DNA from: a virus
Lineage: Duplodnaviria > Heunggongvirae > Uroviricota > Caudoviricetes
Virus record (IMG/VR): IMGVR_UViG_2579778753_000004
Length of the DNA stretch: 34,205 nucleotides
Strand: one strand, 5' to 3'
The notes beneath the pieces are model-generated. The model did no database searches. It worked only from the letters and a program-made list of their open reading frames with translations, and had not been told where the DNA came from. Every line of letters starts with the position of its first letter. Position 1 is the stretch's first letter. Position numbers and translations under genes: made by a program. Below, piece after piece: positions 1-34,205 of the stretch.

Positions 1-188
1 AATTTTGCGACCACGGTGCTTAACAAACTGGCGGAGAAGCTGGCCAAAGACCAGAACGGCGCAGATATTCCTGACCCGGCGCTCTTTGTCAAAAACCTTG
101 GTTTGGGAGATGCGAGCGGATACGTTGGTAGGCTGCTAAAAATACAGGTATTCACTGCCAGCGGGACAGTGACAAAAACGCCAGGCGC
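1..188. repeat. Left copy of inverted repeat (IR-L), coding, truncated by window edge
   Basis: Positions 1-188 are the exact reverse complement of 1681-1868 by hand alignment; identity stops at 189/1680. Both copies encode the same peptide NFATTVLNKLAEKLAKDQNGADIPDPALFVKNLGLGDASGYVGRLLKIQVFTASGTVTKTPGA. Confidence 0.9.
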
Positions 189-4327: not shown

Positions 4328-4840
4328 TCAGTGGGAATGGTGATTAGAGTTCGGGCCGTCAGAGAGCATGCTGCCTGTCGAGTGGGCATTGCCGTTGATT
4401 TCAAGGTTGCCGTTCACCGTGGTGGTGTCAGCGGTCAAATCAATGGTTTTCCCCTTCAGGCTGATACCCACTGCAACCTCGATCACCACATGCTCGATAC
4501 CACCTTTGACTGTCAGCGTATGGGTCGCACGGTTATAGCTGAACTCTGCGCCATCCGCGTATTTCGTGCCCCGGACATGTTTGTCGCTGAACGGCGGTTT
4601 ATCGACTTCTGAGTACACCGCGCCCAGAATGACACCATCCTCGCCGTTGGCATCGAGCAGCACTTCAACCTGCTCCCCCACGTCAGGGAGCCAGTAATCC
4701 TTGTTATCCTGGGTATTGCGCTGCAGCACGTTAAGCCAGTTAGTGCGCAGGTTATCGCATTCCGGCAGACGAACGCGGGCCTGAACCTTGTCGGCATCGA
4801 CGGCGCTGACCGTACCGACCTGACGAGTGACGCCTGTCAT
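4328..4840 (-). CDS. Baseplate spike/assembly protein V-like
   Basis: 170 aa, gpV-like, followed by W and J homologues. Confidence 0.7.
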   Translation of the reverse strand: MTGVTRQVGTVSAVDADKVQARVRLPECDNLRTNWLNVLQRNTQDNKDYWLPDVGEQVEVLLDANGEDGVILGAVYSEVDKPPFSDKHVRGTKYADGAEFSYNRATHTLTVKGGIEHVVIEVAVGISLKGKTIDLTADTTTVNGNLEINGNAHSTGSMLSDGPNSNHHSH

Positions 4841-6009
4841 TATTTTTTCTCCTTTATTACCGTGGACGTGCTGCCGTCCGGTTTATAGACGGTCAGCGTC
4901 TGGGTTTTTCCGGTCTTTTTACCTTTCTTCGCTTTGCCCTGCGTAACCGGCCCTCGTGCCACTTCCAGTTCGGTGATGTAGCCGCTGTTACGGTCAAACG
5001 CATGGCGGGCAGTAGTTATCAGCCATGGCCCGGATAACTGACCAAAACCCACCAGTTCAATTTTGTTGCCTGCAGTCAACTGAGGCGTCCCCATCAGCGT
5101 CAGCGAGCCGTTCTGCTGGTATTCGTTATGCCTGGCCAGCGCCGAATCTGCTTTAATCCGGGCGCTGTCCGGATCACTGACGCGGCTGTTGACCTTCAGT
5201 GAGTCGGCACTGGTGACCTTACCGCCTTTGGTTTGTTTGTCGCTTTCGCTGGTACCGCCATCAGCTTCATAAACGATCAGCTTTTTATCGCTGCTCTTCT
5301 GGTGTTTTACCTTCGCGGATTTGTAGACGCGGTTGATGGTGTCACGCAGGGAAAAGCTGTCCACATCCTGCGGCTTTAACTGCCTGATCGGCTCCTGACC
5401 GCGTAACGTGGCAAGATGAGAAAAAACCAGCTGGTCGCTGACCACTTTCACGGCATAACCATACTCGCTGGCCAGTCGGCGCAGGAAGCCCACGTCCGTT
5501 TCAGCATACTGGGTCACCCGGTCAATTTTGATGGACTCAATACTGCCAACCAGCTTCAGCTGATGCTTTTTGGCAATCCGTCCGGCGATGGCCGCCAGCG
5601 TGGTGCTCTCGAAACCACGACTGGATTTTGTCCGCAGGGCGTTGTTGACCGACGTGGCCACGCCCCGGATAGCGACAACGGACGCGGGCGAACTCACCTC
5701 GATCTCGTCTATAGAGAACGTACCGCAGGACAGCAGCTTCTCGCCCTGATAACCCATTTTCAGCGTCAGCGTGTCACCCTTGCCCGGATACCACTTATCC
5801 AGCCAGCGGCCATCGGTGTCGTCCAGTTCCACCTCAATGGTATCGGACTCGCTTTTGATGTTATCGCTGTAGGTTACGCGGGTGACATAGGGGGCGATAT
5901 CGGTGGTGATGTTCTTCTGCAGATACCATAGCGTGAACACCGGACTCAGAACATCGCTGACGCCGGTTAACGCTGATGCGGCTTGTGCAGGGCTGTTTAT
6001 CTCAGCCAT
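4840..6009 (-). CDS. Late control D-like tail protein (P2 gpD / Mu P family)
   Basis: 389 aa, downstream of tape measure and U/X-like genes as in P2/Mu. Confidence 0.7.
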   Translation of the reverse strand: MAEINSPAQAASALTGVSDVLSPVFTLWYLQKNITTDIAPYVTRVTYSDNIKSESDTIEVELDDTDGRWLDKWYPGKGDTLTLKMGYQGEKLLSCGTFSIDEIEVSSPASVVAIRGVATSVNNALRTKSSRGFESTTLAAIAGRIAKKHQLKLVGSIESIKIDRVTQYAETDVGFLRRLASEYGYAVKVVSDQLVFSHLATLRGQEPIRQLKPQDVDSFSLRDTINRVYKSAKVKHQKSSDKKLIVYEADGGTSESDKQTKGGKVTSADSLKVNSRVSDPDSARIKADSALARHNEYQQNGSLTLMGTPQLTAGNKIELVGFGQLSGPWLITTARHAFDRNSGYITELEVARGPVTQGKAKKGKKTGKTQTLTVYKPDGSTSTVIKEKK

Positions 6010-26966: not shown

Positions 26967-28736
26967 ATGAGTGCCGCCCTGACTGAACGACTGGTTTATG
27001 TTGCCCGCGCGGCACGTGACGCGGGGCATGGTAAGCGTGGTGCGATATATGATGCCGCCTGCGCCGAACTGGGCATTTCCCGCGCCACCCTGCTGCGCAA
27101 GCTGAAGGAGGTATCAGTGACTGACAAACGTAAAAAACGCGCCGATGCCGGGCGCAGTGCCCTGAGCCGCGACGAAGCCGCGCTGATATCTGCCACGCTG
27201 CGCGAGGCCACCCGTAAGAACGGTAAGCGCCTGTATTCCATCGCGGATGCGGTGGAGACCCTGCGGTCAAACGGCTTTATCACTGCTGGCAGAACGGACG
27301 AGGCCACAGGCGAGTTTTTCCCGCTGTCCGAGGACACCATCAGCCGCGCCCTGCGGAACTATGGTCTGCACCCGGAACAGCTTGACGCACCGGCCCCGTC
27401 GTCCGAGATGGCCAGCCTGCATCCCAATCACGTCTGGGAGATTGATGCCTCACTTTGTACGCTTTACTACCTGAGCAACGGCCATAAAGGGTTGCAGGTG
27501 ATGGACAGCTCGAAGTTCTACAAGAACAAGCCTGCCAACATCGCCCGCATCGCCAGTGACCGCGTGTGGAGTTACGAGATTACCGACCATACCAGCGGCT
27601 GGATTTACGTTGAGTACGTGATGGGTGCGGAATCTGGTGAGAACCTCTGTTCTGTGCTTATCAACGCCATGCAGGAGCGCGGCGGCGCGGACGTGCTGCA
27701 CGGCGTGCCGAAAATACTCTACCTTGATCCCGGTTCGGCGAACACCGCTGGCATGACGAAAAACATGTGCCGCTCGCTGGGCATCAATCTGATAGCGCAC
27801 AAGCCGCATAACGCCCGCGCCACCGGGCAGGTGGAAAAGGCCCGTGACATTATCGAACGTAAACTGGAGCCGGGTCTCAAATTCCAGCCGGTTCATAGCC
27901 TGGACGAACTGAACGCGCTGGCGGTGAAATGGCGCAGCCACTTTAACGCCACGGCGGTCCACAGCCGCCACGGTAAAACCCGCACGGATATCTGGCTGAA
28001 GATTACTGCTGACCAGCTGAAAAAAGCGCCATCCGTTGAGGTTTGCCGCGAACTGGCGGTGGCCGCACCGGAACTCCGTAAGGTCACACCAAAACTGCGC
28101 GTCTCGTTCCGGGGCAATGAGTTTGACGTTTCGACGGTACCGGGCGTACTGGTCGGCGAAAAACTGATGATTACCCGTAACCCGTGGCGCAGCGATGTGG
28201 CGCAGGTGGTGCTGACCGGTGAGGACGGTCACGAGACGTTCTTCCTGGTCGAGGAGGTCAGAAAGAACGAGTTCGGCTTTGCCGAAAGCGCGGCGGTATT
28301 TGGCGAAAACTACAAAGCCCTGCCGGAGACCCCGGCGCAGACGGCGGCAAAAGAAATCGAAGAGCTGGTTACGGGCACCGATAACGCCACCGATGCAGCT
28401 GCTGCACGCAAGGCGAAGGCGCTGCCGTTCGGCGGGCGACTTGACCCGTACAAACATATCGACGACACCACGCTTCCTGCCTATATGCCGAAGCGCGGTC
28501 AGGCTTCAGACGTGCGCGGGCCGCGTATTGAGCAGCGTCCGCTGACCCATGTGGAGGCGGCGAAAGCCCTGCGCGAGAAGTTTGGCGCTAACGGCCATAT
28601 CTGGACGCCGGAACATTACCGCCAGTTAACGGCGCAGTACCCGGATGGCGTACCTGAAGCCGCGCTGGATGAGGTGATGGTTACCCTGACCACTCCGGCC
28701 CGCAACAGCGTTATCAGCATCGTTAACGGTAACTGA
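26967..28736 (+). CDS. DDE transposase (MuA-like)
   Basis: 589 aa; candidate catalytic Asp at ...VWEIDASL... and ...LYLDPGSANT...; followed by the ATPase gene; RBS AGGAGG. Confidence 0.85.
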   Translation: MSAALTERLVYVARAARDAGHGKRGAIYDAACAELGISRATLLRKLKEVSVTDKRKKRADAGRSALSRDEAALISATLREATRKNGKRLYSIADAVETLRSNGFITAGRTDEATGEFFPLSEDTISRALRNYGLHPEQLDAPAPSSEMASLHPNHVWEIDASLCTLYYLSNGHKGLQVMDSSKFYKNKPANIARIASDRVWSYEITDHTSGWIYVEYVMGAESGENLCSVLINAMQERGGADVLHGVPKILYLDPGSANTAGMTKNMCRSLGINLIAHKPHNARATGQVEKARDIIERKLEPGLKFQPVHSLDELNALAVKWRSHFNATAVHSRHGKTRTDIWLKITADQLKKAPSVEVCRELAVAAPELRKVTPKLRVSFRGNEFDVSTVPGVLVGEKLMITRNPWRSDVAQVVLTGEDGHETFFLVEEVRKNEFGFAESAAVFGENYKALPETPAQTAAKEIEELVTGTDNATDAAAARKAKALPFGGRLDPYKHIDDTTLPAYMPKRGQASDVRGPRIEQRPLTHVEAAKALREKFGANGHIWTPEHYRQLTAQYPDGVPEAALDEVMVTLTTPARNSVISIVNGN

Positions 28737-28746
28737 GGAGGAAGGC

Positions 28747-29913
28747 ATGCTGGTACTGAAGCAACAACTGAAAGAGGCCCGCATCCCGCAGGCGGTGGTG
28801 GCAAGAGCCGTCGCCGTTTCCGAGGCCACGCTGGCCCAGATTGTGAACCATAACGAGTGGCCACGCACCAGCCCCGAAGAGGTACGCCAGCGTCTGGCGT
28901 TGTATCTGGAAAGTAAGGGGATTGATACAGCGAAAAGTTTTGATGCTGCACAGGGCGCTGTCACGCCCCGTACAGCGGGTACTACCGATAAAACCAACCT
29001 CAGTGAGGAAGAGAACATGTTACTCAAAAAGCAGGTGTTATTTCCAGCAACCAAAAAAGCGTTTGGCCTTTTCCGTGATCCGTTCGCCGATGAAGCCATG
29101 CAGGGCGCGGACGATGTGTTCACCACGCCGGATATCCGCTACGTGCGTGAGGCGCTGTTCCAGACCGCCCGCCATGGTGGCTTTCTGGCGGTTATCGGCG
29201 AGTCCGGTGCGGGTAAATCCACGCTGCGCCGCGACCTGATTGAACGCGTCAACCGCGAGAACGCGCCGGTGATTGTAATTGAGCCATACATCATCGCCAT
29301 GGAAGACAACGACGTGAAGGGCAAAACCCTGAAGGCGGCAGCTATCGCCGAGGCCATCATCAGCACCATCGCGCCGCTGGAGAGTATCAAACGCAGCCAG
29401 GACGCCCGCTTCCGCCAGTTGCACCGCGTCCTGAAGGACAGCAGTCAGGCGGGTTTCAGCCACGTTCTGGTGATTGAGGAGGCCCACAGCCTTCCCATTC
29501 CGACGCTGAAGCACCTTAAACGCTTCTTCGAACTGGAGTCCGGCTTCAAAAAACTGCTGTCCATCGTGCTGATTGGCCAGCCTGAACTGGCGGACAAACT
29601 GTCCGAACGCAACATGGAAGTCCGTGAGGTCGTCCAGCGCTGCGAGGTGGTTGAATTGCTGCCGCTGGACAACAGCCTCGAAGAGTTTCTGACGTTCAAA
29701 CTGCAACGTGCCGGTAAGCAGCTGGCCGACATCATGGACGCCAGCGCAGTGGAAGCCATCCGCGCCCGTCTGAGCAATCTGGGTGGTAGCCGTAAAAGCA
29801 TGGTCAGCCTGCTGTATCCGCTGGCCGTCAGTAACCTGGTGATAGCCGCCATGAATCTGGCTGCTGAAATCGGGGTTCCGCAGGTCAACGCCGACGTCGT
29901 CAAAGGAGTTTAA
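28747..29913 (+). CDS. Transposition helper AAA+ ATPase (MuB-like)
   Basis: 388 aa, Walker A GESGAGKST, Walker B-like HVLVIEEAH; immediately downstream of the transposase. Confidence 0.8.
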   Translation: MLVLKQQLKEARIPQAVVARAVAVSEATLAQIVNHNEWPRTSPEEVRQRLALYLESKGIDTAKSFDAAQGAVTPRTAGTTDKTNLSEEENMLLKKQVLFPATKKAFGLFRDPFADEAMQGADDVFTTPDIRYVREALFQTARHGGFLAVIGESGAGKSTLRRDLIERVNRENAPVIVIEPYIIAMEDNDVKGKTLKAAAIAEAIISTIAPLESIKRSQDARFRQLHRVLKDSSQAGFSHVLVIEEAHSLPIPTLKHLKRFFELESGFKKLLSIVLIGQPELADKLSERNMEVREVVQRCEVVELLPLDNSLEEFLTFKLQRAGKQLADIMDASAVEAIRARLSNLGGSRKSMVSLLYPLAVSNLVIAAMNLAAEIGVPQVNADVVKGV

Positions 29914-29915
29914 TC

Positions 29916-30185
29916 ATGAAATCCATCGCCGATATCAACCAGCAGATGAACAAGGTGCAGTCCGCCATTATGGCGCTCAACGCCATGAACACTACCGTGC
30001 AGAGCGTCATGATTGCTGGCAGTAAGCCGGTTATCCGTATCGCCCGCAACGGGCACTGTGCCCGCCTGCTGGAGCAGGGCAAAGCGAGTTATACCCATGT
30101 TGGCCATGACGGCTCAGGGCGCTTCCGTCAGGGCGTCTTTGAGTTGCATGGCTGCCGTATTACCTGGTCAGAGTCGTTACATTAA
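29916..30185 (+). CDS. Hypothetical early protein
   Basis: 89 aa, RBS AAAGGAG, tightly coupled to B. Confidence 0.5.
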   Translation: MKSIADINQQMNKVQSAIMALNAMNTTVQSVMIAGSKPVIRIARNGHCARLLEQGKASYTHVGHDGSGRFRQGVFELHGCRITWSESLH

Positions 30186-30202
30186 CCATAAGGTGAACAG
30201 AG

Positions 30203-30814
30203 ATGAGCGAAGTAAATAAAGAAAACTACATGAAAGACCGCAAGGGGCGTCTGGTGCCGGTTGACCAGGTGTCTGACTATGACCTTGCGATGGACTCTTT
30301 CGTTAAAGAACAGGTTGTCGCCGCGAAGGTTAAACGCGATGAACTCAGTGACTTCAAGCGTCGTGCCTTTGACGAGTGCTATGCCTGGCTTGACCTTGTG
30401 GCCGAGAAGTACGGCAGAACGCGTGGCGGTGCCAAAGGCAACGTGACCTTCAGCAGCTTCGACGGTGCTCAGCAGATCACCATCCGCGTGCAGGAAACCC
30501 TGACCTTCGGGCCAGAGCTGCAGATTGCCAAAGACCTGATAGACGAGTGCGTCACCGAGTGGTCGGAAGGCGCGAACGCCAACCTGCGGGCCATCATCAG
30601 CGATGCTTTTCAGGTGGACAAAGAGGGCCAGCTTAATACCGGACGTATTCTTTCCCTGCGCCGCGTCAAGATTCAGGACGAGCGCTGGAACCGGGCAATG
30701 GAGGCCATATCGGAATCACTGCAGGTGGCAATGTCCAAAACCTATATTAATTTCCGGGAGAAAGATAAACACGGGAAGCTAATTAATATTCCGTTAGATA
30801 TCGCTGCCATTTAA
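30203..30814 (+). CDS. Conserved Mu-like early protein (DUF3164-like, from memory)
   Basis: 203 aa, RBS AGGTGA. Confidence 0.5.
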   Translation: MSEVNKENYMKDRKGRLVPVDQVSDYDLAMDSFVKEQVVAAKVKRDELSDFKRRAFDECYAWLDLVAEKYGRTRGGAKGNVTFSSFDGAQQITIRVQETLTFGPELQIAKDLIDECVTEWSEGANANLRAIISDAFQVDKEGQLNTGRILSLRRVKIQDERWNRAMEAISESLQVAMSKTYINFREKDKHGKLINIPLDIAAI

Positions 30815-30892
30815 TTTTAATTCAATTTCTTTTTATTTCGGCGTCAGTGCCGTGGGCTTCTGCACGCCGAAAACAGCATTAAGGAATAAATC

Positions 30893-31081
30893 ATGTCCAT
30901 CAAATGTATCAACTGCCAGAAAGGTATCACCACCCTGAAGTTCAGCGACGCCAGCGTCATTTCCTCCGGTAAGTACCGCGTACCAGCCGTCCTCATCACG
31001 CTGGTATGCCCACACTGTAGCCAGCATTACTACACCGAAGTCCCGGCCATGGAATTCATCCCTTGTGAGGCAAAGAAATGA
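30893..31081 (+). CDS. Small zinc-ribbon protein
   Basis: 62 aa with C-x2-C ... C-x2-C (CINCQ ... CPHCSQ); RBS AAGGAA. Confidence 0.5.
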   Translation: MSIKCINCQKGITTLKFSDASVISSGKYRVPAVLITLVCPHCSQHYYTEVPAMEFIPCEAKK

Positions 31082-31179
31082 TTACTGCAAAAGAAGCCGA
31101 AAAACGGACCCGTGAAATTGTCGCGGAATATATCAGTGAATGTGGTTGTGAAAATCCCAACCATATCGGCAGGTATTAA
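31078..31179 (+). CDS. Micro-ORF (33 aa), translationally coupled
   Basis: ATGA overlap with the upstream stop; MITAKEAEKRTREIVAEYISECGCENPNHIGRY. Confidence 0.3.
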   Translation: MITAKEAEKRTREIVAEYISECGCENPNHIGRY

Positions 31180-31193
31180 TCAAATTAATCAGC

Positions 31194-31349
31194 ATGGCTT
31201 CACACGCCATCGTAGCAACAAATGGCCTAGATCAGGCTATTTACGTTCTTCACGCCACCAGTGACCACCTGAGAAAAATGCCGCCGCTGTACGAGCTGGA
31301 AATTACTGAGGACGGCCACGTGAAAGTTATCGGCGTATCACGCCATTGA
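31194..31349 (+). CDS. Micro-ORF (51 aa)
   Basis: ATG-initiated frame in a gene-dense operon; weak RBS. Confidence 0.3.
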   Translation: MASHAIVATNGLDQAIYVLHATSDHLRKMPPLYELEITEDGHVKVIGVSRH

Positions 31350-31364
31350 TTTGGGGAAGATAAG

Positions 31365-31661
31365 ATGAAAGGCATGAAATTATATAACCGTTCGACGATC
31401 TACAATCTGGCCCTCAAAACCTTCGGCCCAGAAGCTCAGGCTCTGAAGCTGATGGAAGAAGCTGCCGAACTGGCCGCTGCTGCTGCCCGCAACATGAACG
31501 GACTGGGCAATGAAGTTGATCTGGCAGGCGAACTGGCTGACGTTGAAATCATGATTGAACAGTTCCGCCTAAACGGGATGGGCCTGATGATTGATTTTCA
31601 TAAGCAGAAAAAGCTGGAACGCCTTGCCGAACGCCTGGGGGTGACTTATGCCGCAGAATAA
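31365..31661 (+). CDS. MazG-like nucleotide pyrophosphohydrolase-type small protein (tentative)
   Basis: 98 aa; acidic helix motifs LMEEAAELAAAAA and LAGELADVEIMIEQ; RBS GGGGAAG. Confidence 0.45.
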   Translation: MKGMKLYNRSTIYNLALKTFGPEAQALKLMEEAAELAAAAARNMNGLGNEVDLAGELADVEIMIEQFRLNGMGLMIDFHKQKKLERLAERLGVTYAAE

Positions 31662-32337
31662 TGAAAAGCTGCTGGAGAAGTTAAAAAAGCTACTTGCGCT
31701 GGCTAAATCCGATAACCCCCATGAAGCGGCACTGGCACTGCAACGCGCCCAGAAACTGATGCAGGCCTATAACATCACCCAGGCTGACCTCGCACTCAGT
31801 GATATTGATGAAAGCGTCAGTAACTACTGGGCTGCAGGTAGCGTTAATCCGCCGCGTTATATGCTGGGTCTGCTGGATATTATCCAGGTGGCATTTGGCG
31901 TTAAGTCTATTATTCACTCCGGCTTTAAACCCGGCGTTGGCTTTTACGGTAATAAAGACCGGGTTGAACTGGCCTCATATACATGGGAGGTACTGGCCAG
32001 ACAGTTAATCATGGCCCGTAAAAACTATATTCGACAGCAGAATAAAAGAATCAAAAACACGACCAAGACCAGCCGTGGTGACAAATTTGCCGAAGGGTGG
32101 GTTCTGGCCGTGCGTAGCGAGGTTCATTTATTTGCTATGTCCCGCGAAGAACGGGAGCTGGCAAACCTCTGGCTTGAACAAAAATACCCTGATTCAGGAA
32201 CAACCTCTGGCCGCAAAGCCGGTAAATCCCGTGACGCGGACATGTCCCGCCACATCGGTTACAGAGAGGGAGAAAACGTCCGTCTACATCAGCCTGTCAG
32301 CGGGCAGGAACAGCGGAAGCTGGGGAGTGGCTTATGA
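31648..32337 (+). CDS. DUF2786-like protein
   Basis: 229 aa; N-terminal KLLALAKSDNPHEAALALQRAQKLM as I recall for DUF2786; RBS GGGGGTGA. Confidence 0.5.
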   Translation: MPQNNEKLLEKLKKLLALAKSDNPHEAALALQRAQKLMQAYNITQADLALSDIDESVSNYWAAGSVNPPRYMLGLLDIIQVAFGVKSIIHSGFKPGVGFYGNKDRVELASYTWEVLARQLIMARKNYIRQQNKRIKNTTKTSRGDKFAEGWVLAVRSEVHLFAMSREERELANLWLEQKYPDSGTTSGRKAGKSRDADMSRHIGYREGENVRLHQPVSGQEQRKLGSGL

Positions 32338-32549
32338 TGGCTGAATCAATTGTATGTGCCTTGTTCTGGTATGGTCTCGTGGGGTGGTGTACTGCTGAAC
32401 TGCACCGCCGTTCAGGGTTTTACTCACGTTACAGCGGTACCGGACACTGGATCAGTTGGGCCGTTATGTTCCTGTGCTGGCCTGTCGCGCTTCCTTTATA
32501 TGTCGACTATATCGGTGGCGCAGGTAAAAGGAGTGGCAATGATGACTAA
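32334..32549 (+). CDS. Small membrane protein (two predicted transmembrane helices)
   Basis: 71 aa; ATGA overlap with the upstream gene; RBS GGGGAG. Confidence 0.5.
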   Translation: MMAESIVCALFWYGLVGWCTAELHRRSGFYSRYSGTGHWISWAVMFLCWPVALPLYVDYIGGAGKRSGNDD

Positions 32550-32967
32550 GCAGCGTCTTATTCAACTCATTCATATTGCCCGCAGCGACCTCCAGATGGA
32601 TGAGGACACCTACCGCCAGATGCTACAGGGGCTGACCGGCAAAGCCTCAACCAAAGGGATGGATACCCCACAACTAAACCGCGTGCTGGAATCAATGAAA
32701 AAGAAAGGCTTTCGCATTAAGCCTGCCGGGAAAGCCAAGTCCGGCTTACCGCTCGACAGCCATCCGCAGTCAAAGAAAATCCGTGCGCTATGGCTTGAAA
32801 TGGCTGCCGCAGGCATCGTCCGTGACAGTTCAGAGCAGGCGCTGGCGCTGTGGGTTAAACGGGAAACCGGCATCAGCGCGTTACGCTGGCTCAGCAATGA
32901 GCAGGCAAGTAGCGTGATTGAGAAACTGAAGAAGTGGCAGCGCAGAGCTGCGGGAGTGAAGCAATGA
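32539..32967 (+). CDS. gemA: GemA-like protein (Mu gp16 family)
   Basis: Start at ATGATG 32539 with RBS AAAGGAG; ...LIQLIHIARSDLQMDEDTYRQML... aligns with Mu GemA as I recall it. Confidence 0.65.
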   Translation: MMTKQRLIQLIHIARSDLQMDEDTYRQMLQGLTGKASTKGMDTPQLNRVLESMKKKGFRIKPAGKAKSGLPLDSHPQSKKIRALWLEMAAAGIVRDSSEQALALWVKRETGISALRWLSNEQASSVIEKLKKWQRRAAGVKQ

Positions 32968-33353
32968 GCGACCTGAATCAGTTTCGTAGTAAAGGGCCGG
33001 AACTGTTGGTGGAACTGGCACAGCATACCTCTGAGACTGTCCGCGAGATTATTGATATCGAACCCGCAGTTGCCGACCAGATTGGTCAGGCCGTCGCGAA
33101 CCGCATGATGCAGGTCTGGGGTGGGCAAAACGTCTATTTTCCGATGGGCATGGTCTGGAAGGTCAGCCAGCGCGACCGGGAAATTTTCCTGGAGTTTGAC
33201 GGGCGCAACCATCACGAACTGGCCCGCAAATTTGGTGTTTCACTACAGTGGGTTTACAGCGTGGTGAAGCGGGTCAGAAAAGAAGAACTGGATCGGATGC
33301 AGGGCAAACTGTTTGATGGCGAACCTGATGCCGATACAGGGAAAAAGGAGTAA
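32964..33353 (+). CDS. mor: Mor/C-family transcriptional activator
   Basis: ...VWGGQNVYFPMG...FDGRNHHELARKFGVSLQWVYSVVKR... aligns with Mu Mor (GGQ.VYIP ... FNGRN..EL...YGV....VY) from memory; ATGA overlap with gemA. Confidence 0.75.
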   Translation: MSDLNQFRSKGPELLVELAQHTSETVREIIDIEPAVADQIGQAVANRMMQVWGGQNVYFPMGMVWKVSQRDREIFLEFDGRNHHELARKFGVSLQWVYSVVKRVRKEELDRMQGKLFDGEPDADTGKKE

Positions 33354-33443: not shown

Positions 33444-33514
33444 CTTCCCATGTTGACCCAGTACTTCCCATAATTATCTCACTTATCCCCTGTCATTTAT
33501 CTCAAGTCTAATCA
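33444..33514. repeat. Prophage right terminus with subterminal direct repeats (putative transposase-binding sites)
   Basis: CTTCCCAT at 33444 and 33464 (20-bp period); TTATCTC at 33475 and 33498 (23-bp period); element ends ...AATCA at 33514. Confidence 0.55.
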
Positions 33515-34205
33515 GCTCACGGCCCTGATAGATAACGCCTTTTGAATCGCAAACCACGATGTTATGTTTTTGCAGACCCAGCGCTACCAGCAGGTTCATA
33601 CAGGCGATTGCTGCGGCACCCGCGCCGGAAACCACCATCCGCACGTCGGAGATGTTTTTCTCCACCACGCGCAAGCCGTTGAGGATGGCGGCAGTGCTGA
33701 TGATTGCCGTGCCGTGCTGATCGTCGTGGAATACCGGAATATTCATCCGCTCGCGCAGTTTCTGTTCAATATAGAAACATTCTGGCGCTTTAATGTCTTC
33801 GAGGTTGATTCCGCCGAAGGTCGGTTCGAGCGCAGCGACAACTTCAATAAATTTGTCCGGGTCGAGTTCATCAACTTCAATGTCAAATACATCAATCCCG
33901 GCGAATTTCTTAAACAGAACGCCCTTGCCTTCCATCACCGGTTTGCCAGCCAGCGCGCCAATGTTGCCTAACCCCAGCACCGCCGTACCGTTAGAGATCA
34001 CCGCCACCAGGTTACCGCGCGCGGTATATTTGTAGGCTTTTAACGGGTCTTTTTCGATTTCAAGACAAGGTGCGGCAACGCCTGGTGAGTAGGCCAGCGC
34101 CAGATCGCGCTGCGTTGCCAGAGGCTTGGTTGGAGAAACCTGGATTTTCCCTGGAACTGGAAATTCATGGAAATCAAGTGCACTTTGTTTTAACTGGTCA
34201 TCCAT
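33483..34205 (-). pseudogene. maeB: maeB 5' fragment (NADP-dependent malic enzyme) interrupted by the prophage
   Basis: The translation matches the N-terminal ~229 residues of E. coli MaeB as I recall them ([53 protein letters not shown]...GVIYQGRE), then diverges into [10 protein letters not shown]-stop read from phage DNA. Host-derived DNA is 33515-34205. Confidence 0.8.

Follow-up and report, generated by a model that had tools for sequence, protein, structure and literature searches.

Four accessory genes after the transposition genes of a Mu-like prophage: a probable Kil relative, a DUF3164 gene that is exchanged with gam, a zinc-ribbon gene and a frameshifted pseudogene

What are the small genes that lie directly after the transposition genes of a Mu-like prophage, and what might they do for the phage? 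We asked this of a block of 1434 nucleotides (nt), positions 29916-31349, in the IMG/VR virus record IMGVR_UViG_2579778753_000004. This record, of 34,205 nt in all, is called the window below, and it covers the greater part of a prophage some 34 kb long. The element is a transposable (Mu-like) prophage of the BcepMu/B3 type, located inside the host gene maeB, and the block makes up the promoter-proximal part of the element's semi-essential early region (A, B, block, GemA, Mor). We give a probability of roughly 70% to the joint reading that the block holds four accessory genes of this region, the first a Kil-like gene, the second (DUF3164) a substitute for Gam and the fourth a pseudogene, together with a hairpin in the spacer after the second gene. 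The block would be co-transcribed with A and B and, for the most part, translationally coupled. As prophage anatomy it is routine, and the region is of a known and ordinary type; identical or near-identical copies are already present in RefSeq and GenBank as hypothetical or DUF3164 proteins.

The early operon is on the plus strand and the late genes, of the P2/Mu myovirus type, are on the minus strand. The order of the early genes is helix-turn-helix (HTH), DUF3102, DDE transposase, ExeA-like B, the block, MazG-like, DUF2786, a small open reading frame (ORF), gp16/GemA and Mor. Directly upstream of the block are transposase A (DDE, 589 amino acids (aa), 26967-28736, plus strand) and the B-type transposition ATPase (388 aa, ExeA/AAA_22, 28747-29913, plus strand), the latter matching Pfam AAA_22 (E 3e-20) and phrog_296, “DNA transposition protein” (E 3e-89). 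The RefSeq name for a near-identical B protein is “ExeA family protein”. Distal to the block are a gp16/GemA-family gene (32539-32967, plus strand) and Mor (32934-33353, plus strand; PF08765, E 1e-42). With A and B directly upstream and GemA and Mor further down, the layout fits the semi-essential early region of Mu-like phages, the contents of which have been described (PMC4553209, PMC3325207), and the original prediction, which had placed the block in such a region, is borne out here. A scan of the block found promoter-like and terminator-like sites to be no more numerous than in shuffled sequence.

Five ORFs had been listed after B, and all of them are where they were placed, but they make up four genes and not five. 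These are, all on the plus strand, the 89-aa ORF at 29916-30185 (gene 1, o89), the 203-aa ORF at 30203-30814 (gene 2, DUF3164), the 62-aa ORF with a CxxC...CxxC pattern at 30893-31081 (gene 3, o62), and then a 33-aa ORF (31078-31179) and a 51-aa ORF (31194-31349), which are the 5' and 3' fragments of gene 4. The description of these ORFs as all overlapping or closely spaced holds for most junctions. There are 2 nt between the B stop and the ATG of o89 (with GGAG upstream of this ATG), 17 nt between the o89 stop and the ATG of DUF3164 (with AAGGTG upstream), a 4-nt ATGA overlap between the zinc-ribbon stop and the start of gene 4, and 15 nt between the last ORF stop and the next gene. It does not hold between the DUF3164 stop and the zinc-ribbon ATG, which are separated by a spacer of 78 nt.

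The three intact ORFs are real genes under ordinary purifying selection. Their variable sites are concentrated at third codon positions, and the ratio of nonsynonymous to synonymous divergence (dN/dS; NG86, summed over about 35 non-redundant comparisons with related loci) is 0.086 for o89, 0.080 for DUF3164 and 0.093 for the zinc-ribbon gene, with B at 0.064 and the MazG-like gene at 0.042. Of 5426 complete E. coli genomes, 24 contain the block, which was also found in the genomes of 14 further Enterobacterales species (Pantoea, Mixta, Erwinia, Brenneria, Trabulsiella and others) and in dozens of IMG/VR contigs. Twelve of the 14 species-level Enterobacterales loci preserve the order B, o89, DUF3164, zinc ribbon, as do about 35 IMG/VR loci, which form a close group, and genes 1-3 are present throughout this group. 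A lack of conservation across related prophages, which would have counted against the original prediction, was thus not what we saw; conservation is strong.

We first consider gene 1, which matches phrog_2041 (E 3e-33). An identical protein, WP_000835317.1 (100%, tblastn), is named “HI_1482 family protein” in the RefSeq record NZ_OZ510750.1, and scans with Pfam, NCBIfam and PADLOC gave no match. Close homologues are limited to Enterobacterales. When 1.84 billion cluster representatives were searched with a profile, 96 relatives of 80-115 aa were found, with the family consensus L..G..V..V...PTI.I....C..LI..G.A.Y..G...G..R.GQF...GCRVVW.E. In terms of position, the o89 gene comes first after B in every related locus that has B. 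This includes the FluMu-like Mannheimia phage 3927AP2, where the first gene after B belongs to the o89 family (30.5 bits).

Several comparisons point from o89 to Kil of phage Mu (Mup05, 74 aa, phrog_2743), which is likewise the first gene after B. The o89 protein matches phrog_6381, annotated as Kil, with E 0.005, and Mu Kil itself matches the same group with E 1e-9. When the o89 family hidden Markov model (HMM) was run against 15 Mu early proteins, Kil alone was picked, end to end, at 13.8 bits. The alignment of the two family profiles with hhalign is full-length and covers 70 columns (probability 76.5%, E 2e-5), and both share an (R/K)P-hydrophobic-hydrophobic-x-I motif and a C-terminal LxGCxIxW motif. 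Among 80 Gam-bearing viral loci, 54 have Kil of the Mu type and 9 the o89 type, with no overlap among the loci listed, which is consistent with the two being alternative occupants of one slot. On these profile-level comparisons, o89 is probably a distant homologue of Mu Kil.

Some results weigh against this relationship. The BLASTP alignment of o89 and Kil is confined to the 8 residues of the C-terminal LxGCxIxW motif, the reverse search (Kil HMM against representatives of the o89 family) reaches 10.8 bits at most, and the hhalign probability given above is a modest one. In addition, the molecular target of Mu Kil is not defined in the literature we searched. The two proteins also differ in size, as o89 has 15 more residues and an additional segment of helix and strand, and their similarity is seen at the profile level only.

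The AF2 model of o89 (pLDDT 93.9, pTM 0.83) is that of a small alpha/beta protein, with the order helix, two strands, helix, three strands, and its best PDB matches are cores of the nucleotidyltransferase fold, with Z of 5.7 or less. A nucleotidyltransferase (Pol-beta-like) enzyme was considered and rejected, as the G[GS] motif and the catalytic acidic residues are not conserved in the family. The lack of conserved acidic residues in the family core makes an enzymatic role unlikely and favours a protein-binding one. The o89 protein may then bind a host protein and so bring about arrest of growth or division early in lytic development. The host-takeover function that had been proposed for the block therefore finds some support for the 89-aa gene, as a probable Kil homologue in the same slot, and none for the other genes. 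For the first post-B gene of BcepMu-like and FluMu-like phages, the provisional tie to Mu Kil supplies a concrete predicted phenotype.

As for gene 2, it is a full-length member of PF11363, or DUF3164 (E 7e-80; 267.6 bits against a cut-off of 23.7; profile positions 1-193 of 194), and matches phrog_846 with E 1e-81. In the literature searched, no paper assigns DUF3164 a function. What stands out is its exchange with gam, which was seen in three lineages. In PhiKM and in a Brenneria prophage, gam lies between the o89 homologue and the zinc-ribbon homologue, that is, in the DUF3164 slot. In the D3112 group, LPB1 and D3112 have flanks that are 95-97% identical on both sides, with DUF3164 (ORF12.1) in LPB1 and gam in D3112. 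The B3 group offers the third case: the identity of B3 and H72 is 96% as far as the boundary, with DUF3164 in B3 and gam in H72.

The two genes also exclude one another across wider samples. None of 80 DUF3164 loci has a Gam match within 8 kb, and none of 80 Gam loci has a DUF3164 match with three diverse queries. GenBank phage records comprise 209 with DUF3164 and 139 with Gam, with no accession shared among the rows listed, and the genus lists of the two sets are largely different. This pattern is classical non-orthologous gene displacement. The one-for-one exchange in three lineages, together with the absence of co-occurrence, leads us to propose a role, and suggests that DUF3164 has a Gam-like one. 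Mu Gam (Mup10) is a Ku-like inhibitor of host nucleases that binds double-strand ends, and it occupies the same slot. By analogy, DUF3164 would be a non-homologous substitute for Gam that shields linear phage DNA, during infection or transposition, from the host exonuclease RecBCD. The strict exchange gives this widespread DUF a specific hypothesis, the protection of phage DNA ends from RecBCD.

In its broadest form, the proposal is that DUF3164 is an unrecognised and structurally unrelated replacement for Gam, a family that protects DNA ends or neutralises RecBCD, with the hairpin of the following spacer as a shared punctuation mark of Mu-like early operons. We regard this as tentative and would not count on it. 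If true, DUF3164 would be the Gam replacement for many transposable phages that have no gam. Weighing against the Gam-like role are the hhalign probability of 0.1% between DUF3164 and Gam, with both profiles shallow, and the fact that displacement at a shared slot could also stem from a recombination hot spot that takes up unrelated cargo. The proteins are of similar size (174 aa for Mu Gam, 203 aa for DUF3164); no sequence similarity between them and no Ku-like structural match for the DUF3164 model were found. A relationship of DUF3164 to Ku or Gam by fold or sequence was accordingly dropped, since no similarity was found, including in a structure search with the DUF3164 model.

Two other explanations have to be weighed. 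DUF3164 could be an accessory factor of transposition or replication, or simply unrelated cargo, with the shared slot being no more than a recombination-permissive junction; we consider this possible, if on the whole doubtful. The gene is highly conserved, no fold or sequence similarity to Gam or Ku was found for it, and it adjoins DDE transposase and ATPase genes even in the distant transposable prophages of Bacteroidetes (PMC7761591). Furthermore, the slot lies beside the conserved hairpin, where the several-fold higher synonymous divergence of o62 and o98 (the MazG-like gene) relative to o89 and DUF3164 marks a mosaic boundary. Yet if the slot took neutral cargo, one would expect a wide range of genes in it, and at times both of these together, whereas the same two families swap one for one in three separate lineages with a co-occurrence of 0 in 160. 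The block could also be primarily an anti-defence island, with the zinc-ribbon, 90-aa (gene 4) and DUF3164 proteins inhibiting restriction, abortive infection or other immunity. Traits typical of counter-defence are the early expression, small size and accessory nature of its genes and the variable presence of gene 4; moreover, the Gam protein that can take the place of DUF3164 is an inhibitor of a host nuclease. However, no gene of the block matches a characterised inhibitor, dN/dS values of 0.08-0.09 indicate simple purifying selection and do not look like an arms race, and the divergence of the zinc-ribbon gene reflects higher overall synonymous divergence (dS 0.3-0.7, from mosaicism) and not an excess of amino-acid changes. 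PADLOC gave no match for any of the four proteins, its library being one of defence systems and not of anti-defence proteins. We therefore see an anti-defence island as unlikely. The anti-defence functions named in the original prediction gain no direct support, and the sole lead towards them is the indirect one of DUF3164 in the slot of Gam. The Gam-substitute model remains the mechanism that we prefer for DUF3164.

Gene 4 is an accessory gene of 90 aa (31078-31349, plus strand; phrog_3691, with WP_016246284.1 as the intact form) and is a pseudogene in the window. The 33-aa ORF matches phrog_3691 at positions 1-30 (E 2e-12) and the 51-aa ORF at positions 40-90 (E 7e-21), and the two are in different frames. 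The cause is a 1-nt deletion at 31167 (plus strand), where the window has a single C and relatives have CC; past this point the frame reads GGC AGG TAT TAA. Between the whole block and Escherichia phage Phi06_2974 B (KM389306), this C is the sole difference, and restoring it gives an unbroken ORF of 90 codons. Ten other loci (80-100% aa identity) carry the gene intact, as does PhiKM, at 45% identity. In the intact loci, the variable sites fall 18/11/54 by codon phase, and this bias marks a true protein-coding gene. RefSeq annotates the intact gene in NCTC 13148 and leaves the frameshifted form without annotation in CFS3292 and HH107.

The same deletion allele is carried by CFS3292 (prophage in gadC), by HH107 (in csgC) and by the IMG/VR locus L023, and the gene is disrupted in separate and different ways in L011 and L100. 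Of the 24 copies in E. coli, 11 lack it altogether, and so do the majority of those in other species; in most relatives, which are without gene 4, the zinc-ribbon stop overlaps the MazG-like gene directly. The presence of the dead allele in prophages at three different insertion sites implies that the phage has spread without a functional gene 4. Gene 4 is thus optional in this phage group, and the 1-nt deletion inactivated the window copy. No function could be assigned to the 90-aa protein, for which Pfam, NCBIfam and PADLOC gave no match.

We considered two ways in which the two fragments might be something other than a broken gene. The micro-ORFs could be real small genes, as first proposed, or the 90-aa protein could still be made by programmed -1 ribosomal frameshifting. 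The 33-aa fragment does retain the ATGA coupling to the zinc-ribbon gene, the 51-aa fragment begins with ATG, and the deletion allele is stable, being shared by four independent sequences. Against this, ten relatives carry a single uninterrupted ORF of 90 codons that differs only by the extra C, no slippery heptamer was found near ...CCAACCATATCGGCAGG..., and no Shine-Dalgarno sequence was found before the ATG at 31194; on these grounds both versions were rejected. The independent disruptions in L011 and L100 show repeated decay of the gene, which is wholly missing from the many copies counted above, and the 33-aa and 51-aa ORFs are not conserved as separate ORFs in most relatives. We consider this alternative very improbable. 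Alternatively, the frameshift could be a sequencing or assembly error, with the gene intact in the real organism, and a single-base length change in a short run of C is a typical error class. The run, however, merely goes from CC to C, and the remainder of the 31.7-kb prophage has one gap only when compared with HH107. The identical deletion is found in the window, in two complete genomes from different laboratories with other insertion sites, and in one IMG/VR contig, and its presence in four independent sequences makes an error very unlikely. The micro-ORFs as separately translated genes are hence not supported, and they deserve annotation as one frameshifted pseudogene and not as micro-proteins.

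Gene 3 matches phrog_3401 (E 9e-32). All 16 homologues compared, some of them only 30-56% identical, retain cysteines C5, C8, C39 and C42, and on this pattern the gene is classed as a conserved C4 zinc-ribbon protein. Pfam zinc-ribbon models stay below the cut-off, the best being zf-LITAF-like at 18 bits against 23.8, and NCBIfam and PADLOC scans gave no match. The gene co-occurs with either DUF3164 or Gam. Positive selection on it was considered and rejected, its lower protein identity being due to the high dS that comes with mosaicism. An antisense ORF of 64 aa (30833-31027), which corresponds to the CDS annotated in PhiKM, was likewise rejected as coding, as it shows no third-position excess, while the sense ORF has a dN/dS of 0.09 and the invariant cysteines.

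Homologues of gene 3 gave two further observations. In PhiKM (L003, PQ738613), GenBank has a hypothetical coding sequence (CDS) on the minus strand at 4839-5060, over a plus-strand zinc-ribbon homologue at 4926-5120 that is 56% identical and retains all four cysteines; the minus-strand CDS is probably a strand mis-annotation. In phage B3, ORF7 (L102, 3197-3397, minus strand, 66 aa) lies directly upstream of the B3 DUF3164 gene and contains CxxC...CxxC. It aligns at full length with the window protein, at a pairwise E of 0.3-5, which is not significant, and it belongs to a different PHROG. The cysteine pattern of B3 ORF7 is suggestive, and an association of zinc ribbon and DUF3164 is a possibility.

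The 78-nt spacer between genes 2 and 3 (30815-30892) contains a conserved hairpin, TTTCGGCGTCAG[TGCCGTGGGCTT]CTG(C)ACGCCGAAA, at 30836-30872 on the plus strand. Its RNA fold has an energy of -22.9 kcal/mol (z -2.8). Among 16 sequences, the spacer is variable at 17 of 78 positions, compared with 54% of the third codon positions of DUF3164. The hairpin was found in 74 related loci, amounting to 44 distinct sequences. It is kept in PhiKM, where gam replaces DUF3164, and in the Klebsiella-type group (L053-L068), which is without the downstream zinc-ribbon gene. At the base of the stem there is compensatory change, from TTTCGG/CCGAAA to ATCCGG/CCGGAT or TTCCGA/CCGGAA. By pair counting, 87.8% of cells are paired, compared with 31-49% in slid controls, and both sides have changed in 5 pairs.

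Our best guess is that this hairpin marks a point of mRNA processing or stability, and that it is also a module boundary. Its role stays a guess, as neither strand has a run of T after the stem, the terminator scan was negative and no Rfam family matches the hairpin. As for a boundary, synonymous divergence over the loci L002-L073 gives dS of 0.2-0.7 for the zinc-ribbon and MazG-like genes and 0.0-0.2 for o89 and DUF3164. This several-fold jump indicates a recombination (mosaic) boundary at or near the hairpin spacer. In phage Mu, gam is followed by an analogous spacer, which is AT-rich and contains a GC hairpin. Homology between the two spacers was considered and set aside for want of significant similarity (56% identity; BLAST E about 1-3).

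In comparison with Mu, the window has much the same general plan with mostly different parts. The SE/SEE region of Mu (kil ... gam ... gemA, mor; Mup05-Mup17) likewise follows A and B directly on the early transcript. The whole region can be deleted from Mu, and its deletion relieves the killing by replication-defective Mu (PMC3325207). The early operon of the window ends with homologues of GemA and Mor (35% and 30% identity, tblastn). Its Kil-like first gene is another likeness. So is a slot taken by Gam or its substitute, after which comes a spacer of about 80-100 nt that bears a hairpin. Unlike in Mu, the transposase and B of the window are of the BcepMu/B3 type (DDE plus ExeA-like ATPase) and not MuA/MuB, with no tblastn match at E 1e-3 in the first 11 kb of Mu, and the late genes are transcribed divergently. 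The only Mu SE proteins with a counterpart here are Kil (remote), GemA and Mor, with Gam replaced by DUF3164.

A closer likeness is seen with B3 and with Bcepmuvirus (PhiKM and BcepMu-like prophages). These share the order HTH, DUF3102, DDE transposase, ExeA-like B, small genes, DUF3164 or Gam, DUF2786, GemA and Mor, and their late genes are also divergent. B3 differs in having three additional small genes between B and DUF3164, and its first gene after B (ORF10) reaches no more than 7 bits with the o89 family. PhiKM differs in having Gam where the window has DUF3164.

Following the block on the plus strand is a gene for a MazG-like nucleoside triphosphate (NTP) pyrophosphohydrolase of 98 aa (31365-31661; phrog_2245, E 5e-31). 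The next is the gene of a DUF2786/DUF7168 protein (31648-32337). The DUF2786 gene adjoins DUF3164 or Gam in B3 and H72 too. Both it and the MazG-like gene are further conserved early genes.

The right end of the prophage is at 33514, and maeB host sequence starts at 33515. The truncated N-terminal reading frame of maeB (NADP-malic enzyme) continues for about 10 codons into the phage end before reaching a stop. The maeB junction of this prophage was not found in any complete E. coli genome of the collection. The same phage, 99.97% identical over 31.7 kb, was found in csgC (HH107), in gadC (CFS3292) and in a P2-type integrase gene (NCTC 13148). Near-identical prophages in these three genes and in maeB indicate varied and non-specific insertion sites, as predicted for transposition.

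A segment with tail-fibre and tail-fibre-assembly genes (window positions 1-118 and 944-1680) has the opposite orientation to that in the otherwise 99.97% identical HH107 prophage. The window begins within this segment, short of the left prophage end. In HH107, a gene of the recombinase family (invertase-like) adjoins it, and the arrangement suggests an invertible host-range switch similar to the G segment of Mu.

Lastly, one related locus, L002, comes from OM835952.1, “Klebsiella phage KP12 clone KP12_2”, a record filed under Vequintavirinae. It contains, at 96.7% identity to the block, a BcepMu-like early region, probably the sequence of a co-purified or induced prophage outside the KP12 genome proper.

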